Shown here piece after piece: positions 25,752 through 26,126 of a DNA stretch of 54,587 nt. The position numbers were made by a program, and so were the translations under genes. The first letter of the stretch is position 1. Every line of letters starts with the position of its first letter. The DNA is from a virus, in UHGV virus genome UHGV-0036483. One strand, written 5' to 3'. The notes below the pieces were generated by a model. It searched no databases, was not told where the DNA came from, and saw nothing but the letters and a program-made list of their open reading frames with translations.

Positions 25752-26126
25752 CTAATTGAAATCTTTAATTGCTGTACCTGGTGAACTGTGTGTGATTGTA
25801 TTGTATACAGACTTTGCCTTACTGCGATCTTTCCATTCTTTTAGGATGCAGTTATCAAACTTTGCGATAACCCTTGAAGGTGATAATTCTTCAACATCCA
25901 TGTAAGTAAATCCTATCGTGCTGGTTACTGACCACCATACGTGGTAGCTATACTTGCCGTCATACTCAACCCTTTGCGGTTCACCCATGATTTTGGTGAC
26001 CTGCTCGCAAGTCATTCCTACCTGCAACTTGTTATCAGCCAGTTTAACGAAATCTGTTGACCTTGCGCACCCTGCAAGCAATAAAGCAACAACACCAACA
26101 AAGGCAGCTTTCATTACGCTTTTCAT
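25752..26126 (-). CDS. lipoprotein (reverse-strand cargo gene)
   Basis: Signal peptide with lipobox LLAGC, AAGAGG RBS, own promoter, opposite strand to tail genes. Confidence 0.7.
   Translation of the reverse strand: MKSVMKAAFVGVVALLLAGCARSTDFVKLADNKLQVGMTCEQVTKIMGEPQRVEYDGKYSYHVWWSVTSTIGFTYMDVEELSPSRVIAKFDNCILKEWKDRSKAKSVYNTITHSSPGTAIKDFN

Follow-up and report, generated by a model that had tools for sequence, protein, structure and literature searches.

Small phage-encoded outer-membrane lipoproteins such as Cor (phages phi80, N15 and HK022) and Llp (phage T5) give exclusion by blocking FhuA. Cor is described in PMC3594210, as is gene 15 of HK97, the first gene to be named a moron, which lies between the tail chaperone gene and the gene for the tail tape-measure protein (TMP) and encodes an exclusion protein expressed from the prophage (PMC3594210; Cumby et al. 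2012, summarised there). Its product, gp15, resides in a membrane and prevents the genome from entering, while the receptors are left untouched (PMC3594210). Exclusion lipoproteins named Lpp occur in the mEpimmI group of coliphages: Lpp021, which is gp81 of mEp021 (72 amino acids, aa), excluded the OmpA-dependent phages mEp021 and mEp515, and Lpp010, gp116 of mEp010, did so with the LamB-dependent phages mEp010, mEp044, mEp554 and lambda, while mEp013 was not excluded (PMC11893012). Here we analyse a gene for a predicted lipoprotein in the virus genome UHGV-0036483 (54,587 base pairs, bp; this whole stretch of DNA is called the window in the following). The gene lies in the slot between a DUF6246 gene and the TMP gene, and our analysis argues well for an accessory, moron-type gene, whose product may protect the envelope of the lysogen.

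The window is a full-length mEp021-like (mEpimmI) genome, that is, the genome of a non-lambdoid temperate coliphage, and shares 88–93% nucleotide identity with mEp044, mEp010, mEp554, mEp013 and mEp021 across most of its length. Its counterpart in ENA is the metagenome contig ERZ27287497 k141_9173. To our knowledge, nearly all accessory genes of the mEpimmI phages are uncharacterised. The group is described in PMC11893012, which reports these phages to be as frequent as lambdoid phages among human faecal isolates and maps neither promoters nor operators in them.

Results

The lipoprotein gene is under strong purifying selection. Pairwise ratios of nonsynonymous to synonymous substitution rates (dN/dS) among eight distinct orthologous coding sequences lie between 0.02 and 0.12, with dS reaching and exceeding 1, and we can therefore conclude that the gene is real and more than a chance open reading frame (ORF). 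The mature protein is near-invariant, most so in residues 69–124, and the signal peptide drifts. Two cysteines, Cys40 and Cys93, are invariant alongside Cys20, even in P0010, a 46% identical protein from a more divergent phage that carries it in the same slot adjoining the DUF6246 gene. This invariance is compatible with a disulfide in the periplasm.

The precursor of 124 aa begins with MKSVMKAAFVGVVALLLAG followed by CARST... (also given as MKSVMKAAFVGVVALLLAGCARST) and consists of a signal peptide (residues 1–19), the predicted lipidation site Cys20, and a mature protein of 105 aa with a mass of about 12 kDa and an isoelectric point of 7.9. A first-pass annotation, made from the DNA letters alone, had claimed a signal peptide with the lipobox LLAGC, and this claim is confirmed by all features of a bacterial lipoprotein signal: a charged n-region (Lys2 and Lys6), a hydrophobic h-region of 13 residues (7–19, mean Kyte–Doolittle value 2.55) and a lipobox of the form [LVI][ASTVI][GAS]C. 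In nine aligned sequences, including P0010, Cys20 and Leu17 at position −3 are invariant, and positions −2 and −1 vary inside the allowed set (AG, TG, AS). The residue at +2 is Ala in all orthologues and that at +3 is Arg; the Asp that would signal retention in the inner membrane is not present. In E. coli, lipoproteins with a residue other than Asp at +2 undergo Lol-dependent transfer to the outer membrane. By this rule the protein is predicted to be sorted to the outer membrane, the alanine at +2 being the sole basis of the prediction.

A structural model was calculated with AlphaFold2 from a shallow family alignment. The model contains a BamE/BLIP-like core composed of helices at residues 26–33 and 40–47 and strands at residues 52–55, 60–66, 84–91 and 94–100, with predicted local distance difference test (pLDDT) scores between 72 and 92. 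It displays the alpha-alpha-beta-beta-beta fold, and since the first 36 Foldseek matches belong to the same set, with BamE chains among the top structural matches, the fold is predicted to be that of the BamE/BLIP module, which is widespread among secreted proteins as a protein-binding domain. A search of viral folds in BFVD returned weak matches only, to BLIP-like proteins and to unnamed "lipoproteins" from phages.

The fold does not establish the protein as a genuine member of the BamE family. Pfam BamE (SmpA_OmlA, PF04355) matches seven of nine members of the lipoprotein family, each with an E-value of 4.6e-4 or weaker; for the protein of the window this match covers residues 32–51 only and misses the gathering threshold (20.4 versus 23.2 bits, E 4.6e-4). 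The NCBIfam equivalog cut-off for OsmE is likewise missed (16.3 versus 65, E 6e-3), and a sequence search of the PDB with the family profile returned nothing significant, with BamE at E 2.2. These results bear on the idea that the lipoprotein mimics BamE or OsmE by docking on the beta-barrel assembly machinery (BAM complex) or on another machine of outer-membrane homeostasis. The effect would be an altered assembly of outer-membrane proteins or an altered stress tolerance, hence a lysogenic conversion that may indirectly lower the amount of phage receptors. That BamE and OsmE are the sole sequence-level matches, that BamE chains rank so high in the structural comparison and that high conservation suits a conserved host partner all speak for this mimicry. 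We nevertheless regard it as quite improbable, given that both scores fall below the curated cut-offs, that the BamE match spans only a helix motif of about 20 residues, and that the conserved C-terminal half is without a counterpart in BamE.

The family is rarely encountered. An exhaustive HMMER search against 1.84 billion representatives yielded just two related clusters below 1e-10, namely P0009 (a fragment) and P0010; further weak matches in the same pass were multi-repeat proteins with BamE motifs. This search found no chromosomal, non-phage parent of the kind that YebO represents for gp15. The close homologues that we examined all occupy this slot, either in prophages of E. coli or Shigella or on phage contigs. 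Of 50,697 phage records, mEp013 is the only one with the lipoprotein, and by megablast the gene is present in at least 14 of 5426 complete E. coli genomes, with the DUF6246 gene in at least 19, counts that are lower bounds and afford no reliable ratio of the two genes. As judged from these searches, the family (phrog_18614) is a near-orphan that is restricted to one phage lineage.

The slot that holds this gene was compared across 57 related (pro)phage loci, a sample that includes near-identical contigs and is therefore not one of independent loci. In each of the 57 slots, one to four genes form a reverse-strand cassette, and the intervals measure 550 to 1323 bp, the shortest being that of the window. 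About ten cargo families alternate, and nearly all of them are exported or membrane proteins: a TagO/VasI-like lipoprotein (PF11319) in 22 loci, the BamE-like lipoprotein analysed here in 19, a secreted 138-aa protein in 16, a 100-aa protein with two transmembrane (TM) segments in 10, a 106-aa protein without a signal in seven and a secreted 119-aa protein in six. The remainder are a few singletons, including a 245-aa lipoprotein. Except for the TagO/VasI-like family, no cargo family matches Pfam above the cut-off. Named phages follow this pattern, in that mEp044 carries the 100-aa two-TM protein, mEp021 the secreted 138-aa protein, mEp515 the secreted 119-aa protein, and mEp013 the orthologous lipoprotein together with a 59-aa TM ORF.

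In the first-pass annotation the gene was flanked by the genes for the tail chaperone and the TMP and lay on the strand opposite to the whole morphogenesis operon. The strand and the TMP neighbour are correct, both flanking genes being on the forward strand; the chaperone label is a positional inference only, because the left neighbour is a DUF6246 gene (phrog_791). The GC content of the lipoprotein gene is 41.6% (42% at third codon positions), lower than in either neighbour (DUF6246 gene 48.2%, TMP gene 51.1%). Hence, this locus has the hallmarks of a moron: an extra gene between conserved genes that differs in relatives, a deviant GC content, and a terminator of its own. Because of the low GC content, the unrelated cargo in sibling phages and the position of HK97 gene 15 in the same slot, the assignment to the accessory, moron-type class is well supported, and expression independent of the late operon appears likely.

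A role in the lytic cycle of the phage itself, be it in lysis, as a spanin or in tail assembly, is highly improbable by comparison. The gene is embedded in the morphogenesis operon and adjoins the TMP gene, as such a role might lead one to expect, but it is read from the opposite strand, and viable sibling phages carry unrelated genes in its place. The slot lipoprotein is not the sole lipoprotein of the window either: an o-spanin ORF is embedded inside the i-spanin gene, and we rejected a spanin identity for the slot lipoprotein on account of this separate o-spanin.

Wherever it is present, the BamE-like gene is the last of its cassette and abuts the terminator. In 14 of the 19 loci it directly follows the TagO/VasI-like gene, which in another seven loci lies directly 5' of the gene for the 106-aa protein; the solo arrangement of the window recurs on several independent contigs. 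The TagO/VasI lipoprotein (219 aa, PF11319 with E 1.6e-16) belongs to a family associated with type VI secretion systems (T6SS) and is here encoded inside a phage tail operon. The recurrent pairing with this family would agree with an immunity or inhibitor function. The BLIP/BtiO-like module would then neutralise a competitor's toxin that acts in the periplasm, for example a colicin, a lysozyme-type enzyme or an effector of the T6SS, and the lysogen would gain a competitive benefit instead of phage resistance. Strong purifying selection would suit the fixed molecular target that this function implies. Yet no effector gene is linked to the lipoprotein gene, the TagO/VasI protein has no known function itself (PMC13584744), its gene is absent from the window and pairs elsewhere with the unrelated 106-aa protein as well, and the likeness to BLIP and BtiO exists at the level of the fold only (12–19% identity). 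We therefore consider immunity unlikely, although it is the likeliest of the alternatives.

Two observations concern the history of the slot. In one locus (L057, IMGVR_UViG_2700989400_000004) the 245-aa lipoprotein carries a signal peptide, MKNVIKAALIGVMAFGLVGC, that is near-identical to those of the BamE-like lipoproteins, joined to an unrelated mature part. This composition suggests cassette exchange via recombination inside the signal-peptide coding region. A search of genome contigs with the DUF6246 protein returned only one distant locus, from Providencia, with non-lipoprotein cargo. In this locus (L014) and in L063 the DUF6246 protein is about 39% identical, and quite different cargo occupies the same position, including a reverse-strand 86-aa ORF resembling ribbon-helix-helix proteins and forward-strand accessory genes. 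Since distant relatives hold other cargo at this position, the hotspot appears to be older than the E. coli lineage.

Alignment of the interval from five phages revealed two fixed boundaries, the terminator on the left and the region 5' of the TMP gene on the right. The terminator, common to the DUF6246 and lipoprotein genes, is a GC-rich hairpin with T-runs on both strands and folding energies of −17.7 kcal/mol on the forward strand (z −4.3) and −15.1 kcal/mol on the reverse strand. The terminator scan scored it in both directions, and the annotations of mEp044, mEp021, mEp013 and mEp515 also list a terminator here; the bidirectional terminator that had been proposed for the end of the gene is thus borne out. 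The right boundary is formed by a 23-nucleotide (nt) imperfect inverted repeat, which is unchanged in all 43 distinct upstream sequences of relatives regardless of cargo or leader.

This palindrome contains candidate promoters in both directions (Table 1), the one on the reverse strand about 70 nt 5' of the lipoprotein ATG. A promoter and a ribosome-binding site of its own had also been ascribed to the gene. The ribosome-binding site is present, and the promoter is plausible on the grounds of a candidate read by eye and of the conservation of the palindrome; it is a predicted element only.

An 11-mer, TATACAAAATG(G), is strongly over-represented: the window has 13 matches at one mismatch or fewer, compared with 1.9 expected and at most five in 100 shuffles. 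Its sites are intergenic and often form palindromic pairs about 18 nt apart. At several of these intergenic sites, including the one at 29273 by the next reverse-strand cassette and others at strand switches, the 11-mer stands 2 nt 5' of a −35-like hexamer that is followed by a −10 element after 17 nt; the site at 52784 has TTGACT-17-TATATT just downstream of the gene for a CI-like repressor at 52024–52671. By its placement TATACAAAATG looks like a promoter-upstream element or a regulator site common to the phage group, and it is not described in PMC11893012. A search of positions 25400–26500 against Rfam returned sub-threshold noise only.

We then compared the lipoprotein with the Lpp proteins of types A and C and with the receptor-binding tip of the J protein. 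Neither of the two Lpp types is encoded in the window (tblastn, E above 1). BLASTP produced no alignment between the lipoprotein and LppC, and hhalign gave a probability of 86% for a match of 46 columns in which the signal peptide predominates. A homology to LppC that tblastn had indicated (E 0.012) was rejected as signal-peptide-driven in view of these BLASTP and hhalign results. The Lpp gene lies 3' of J in mEp021, mEp013 and the GF66.2 prophage and is absent (types A and C) from the window, where the gene for J (1827 aa) is followed by a gap of 112 bp and then by the gene for a 1220-aa tail fibre. This gap contains no lipoprotein ORF and leaves no room for an Lpp gene after J. Phage mEp013 encodes the slot lipoprotein as well as LppC, and the GF66.2 prophage encodes it as well as an LppA homologue.

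The last 120 or so residues of the window's J match one IMG/VR contig only (L015/L074), and judging from this tip the receptor of the phage is probably of neither the LamB nor the OmpA type. The contig that shares the tip carries other slot cargo. Conversely, the slot lipoprotein occurs with three unrelated J C-termini, those of the window, of mEp013 (LamB type) and of mEp021-like phages; the TMP N-termini that accompany it share 100, about 85, 64 and 45% identity with the window's own. Because several types of J and TMP accompany the lipoprotein, and because the same J tip is found with other cargo, its function is not tuned to the J or TMP of its own phage.

This lack of co-variation argues against masking of the phage's own J receptor in the manner of Cor, T5 Llp or the mEpimmI Lpp proteins. 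Some facts would favour masking: the product is a small predicted outer-membrane lipoprotein encoded in a temperate coliphage's tail cluster, receptor-matched phages are excluded by Lpp021 and Lpp010 from the same group (PMC11893012), and the niche is vacant in the window, which is without a homologue of Lpp type A or C. Against these facts stand the failure to align with Lpp outside the signal peptide, the coexistence with LppC and an LppA homologue, and the free combination with J tips; we judge masking very unlikely on this comparison of sequences. Of the lysogenic-conversion or exclusion factor of the first-pass annotation, the general class of an accessory, moron-type gene is well supported, exclusion or serum resistance may be its function, and the version that masks the phage's own receptor is disfavoured.

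Two more reverse-strand cassettes interrupt the tail operon. The first, right after the TMP gene, encodes an 84-aa ParE_like protein (PF24732), with a 51-aa ORF ahead of it. This cassette, which relatives conserve, has no match in PADLOC and is possibly a toxin–antitoxin-like moron. The second comprises ORFs of 82 and 115 aa, also without a PADLOC match, at a position where mEp021 and the GF66.2 prophage have an annotated antirepressor or KilAC-domain protein.

Table 1. Coordinates of the features discussed in the text; positions refer to the window unless a locus is named.
Feature	Position	Strand	Remarks
Lipoprotein gene	25752..26126	-	ATG start; phrog_18614 (PHROGs, full-length match, family with no annotated function)
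Signal peptide coding part	26070..26126	-	terminates in lipobox LLAG/C
Predicted BamE/BLIP-like core	25827..26051	-	residues 26–100 (AlphaFold2)
Ribosome-binding site AAGAGGA	26134..26140	-	7 nt 5' of first ATG
Bidirectional intrinsic terminator	25729..25745	both	stem GCCCGG-N5-CCGGGC; begins 6 nt past lipoprotein stop codon
Palindromic element TTATACAAAATG-N18-CATTTTGTATAAAATAGA	26198..26251		fixed right slot boundary; candidate divergent promoters
Candidate promoter toward lipoprotein gene	TTCACT 26231-26226, 17 nt, TATAAA 26208-26203	-	read by eye
Candidate promoter toward TMP gene	TTCGTT 26218-26223, 17 nt, TATAAA 26241-26246	+	
11-mer TATACAAAATG(G) sites	5831-5841, 5899-5909, 10916-10926, 26205-26215, 26234-26244		
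11-mer TATACAAAATG(G), further sites	29273-29283, 47590-47600, 52784-52794, 53464-53474		
DUF6246 gene (phrog_791)	25051..25737	+	left neighbour; tail assembly chaperone position, family with no annotated function
TMP gene	26284..28632	+	right neighbour
Cassette after TMP gene	28772-29026 and 29045-29200	-	84-aa and 51-aa ORFs
Further cassette in tail operon	30018-30266 and 30276-30623	-	82-aa and 115-aa ORFs
Embedded Rz1-like o-spanin ORF	13645-13857	+	+1 frame of i-spanin gene; ...LITALSGC, Pro-rich mature part
i-spanin gene	13455-13925		
J–fibre intergenic region	38329-38440		
Tail-fibre gene	38441-42103		1220 aa
TagO/VasI lipoprotein gene, L005	3331-3990		
TagO/VasI lipoprotein gene, L075 (E. 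coli GF66.2 prophage)	15386-16045		
Slot of distant relative L014 (Providencia)	4625-6603		
Slot of distant relative L063	4640-6238		

Discussion

Our preferred, if tentative, reading by analogy is that the gene is a moron that is expressed from the prophage and protects the envelope, most likely through superinfection exclusion after adsorption, as in the case of HK97 gp15. Transcription in the lysogen would start at a sigma-70-type promoter that belongs to the gene itself and would not depend on the late operon. The product would be lipidated by way of its Sec/LspA signal, and Lol would deliver it to the outer membrane's inner leaflet, where it would face the periplasm. In this position the BamE/BLIP-type module may bind a conserved partner, either periplasmic or another envelope protein, and thereby protect the lysogen; the likeliest form of protection would be interference with a post-adsorption entry step of superinfecting phages. 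The loop at residues 68–83 and the tail at residues 102–124 would fit segments that become ordered upon binding of such a partner.

Several points weigh against this reading. A strict consensus scan of positions 24900–26500 for sigma-70 promoters returned none, and the conserved palindrome might instead act as an operator or, in the late transcript, form an RNA hairpin (−18 kcal/mol). Purifying selection of this strength is not typical for exclusion proteins engaged in an arms race. The structural model has a mean pLDDT of 61.9, hence moderate confidence only, and the loop and tail, which show the highest sequence conservation, are poorly modelled. The lipoprotein and four other reverse-strand ORFs gave no match in PADLOC-DB at E-values up to 1. 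Finally, HK97 gp15 is analogous in position only; it is a YebO-like protein of the inner membrane and not a lipoprotein.

A broader proposal, which we advance as speculative and on balance doubtful, regards the slot as a standardised cargo bay, consisting of the palindromic bidirectional promoter module and the bidirectional terminator, that shuffles envelope proteins. The BamE/BLIP-fold lipoprotein, often together with the TagO/VasI-like one, would then constitute an unrecognised module of envelope defence or immunity that binds a conserved periplasmic target, either the phage entry apparatus or a toxin of the T6SS or colicin type, independently of receptor masking.

An envelope-lipoprotein moron in the tail operon of a temperate phage is a known kind of gene and will not surprise specialists. 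What merits attention is the combination of a near-orphan yet tightly constrained family, a standardised slot architecture and the recurrent pairing with the TagO/VasI family. Should exclusion or toxin immunity prove true, the BamE/BLIP-fold lipoprotein would join the envelope defences encoded by prophages and would offer a simple, testable example of how a cargo slot in a tail operon is organised. If the protein has no measurable effect, it would be one more ordinary moron.

Comparison with known systems

Among the described lipoproteins, Cor and Llp resemble the slot lipoprotein as small phage-encoded proteins of the outer membrane, a location that is predicted in the present case. They differ from it in that no search revealed homology and that the slot lipoprotein does not co-vary with the receptor-binding protein. 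The Lpp proteins are closer in context. They belong to the same phage group and are small lipobox proteins with Ala at +2, encoded on the reverse strand of the structural cluster. In contrast to the slot lipoprotein, they are encoded downstream of J, measure 72–82 aa, are rich in cysteine and unrelated in sequence, and types A and C exclude phages that use the receptor of their own phage (OmpA or LamB), with the exception of mEp013, whereas the slot lipoprotein is independent of the type of J.

With respect to fold, BamE, OsmE and OmlA (PF04355) are lipoproteins of about 100 aa that share the helix motif GMTxxQVxxxxGxP and the alpha-alpha-beta-beta-beta fold, which is predicted for the slot lipoprotein. 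The latter is distinguished by an extra conserved loop, a C-terminal tail of 23 residues and two extra invariant cysteines, as well as by its sub-threshold score and its confinement to phages of one lineage. The BLIP-fold inhibitors and the T6SS immunity protein BtiO (PDB 1jtg_B, 3d4e and 9uu1; PMC12541434) are small secreted modules of the same general fold that act by tight binding of another protein; in comparison, the slot lipoprotein has no cognate toxin or enzyme that is known or linked.

HK97 gene 15 has no relation to the slot lipoprotein in sequence or fold, and it offers the closest parallel in organisation. Both genes occupy the same slot, between the chaperone position and the TMP gene of a temperate E. 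coli siphovirus, both encode a small envelope protein from an independent transcription unit, which is predicted in the present case, and both are absent from close relatives or replaced there by different genes.

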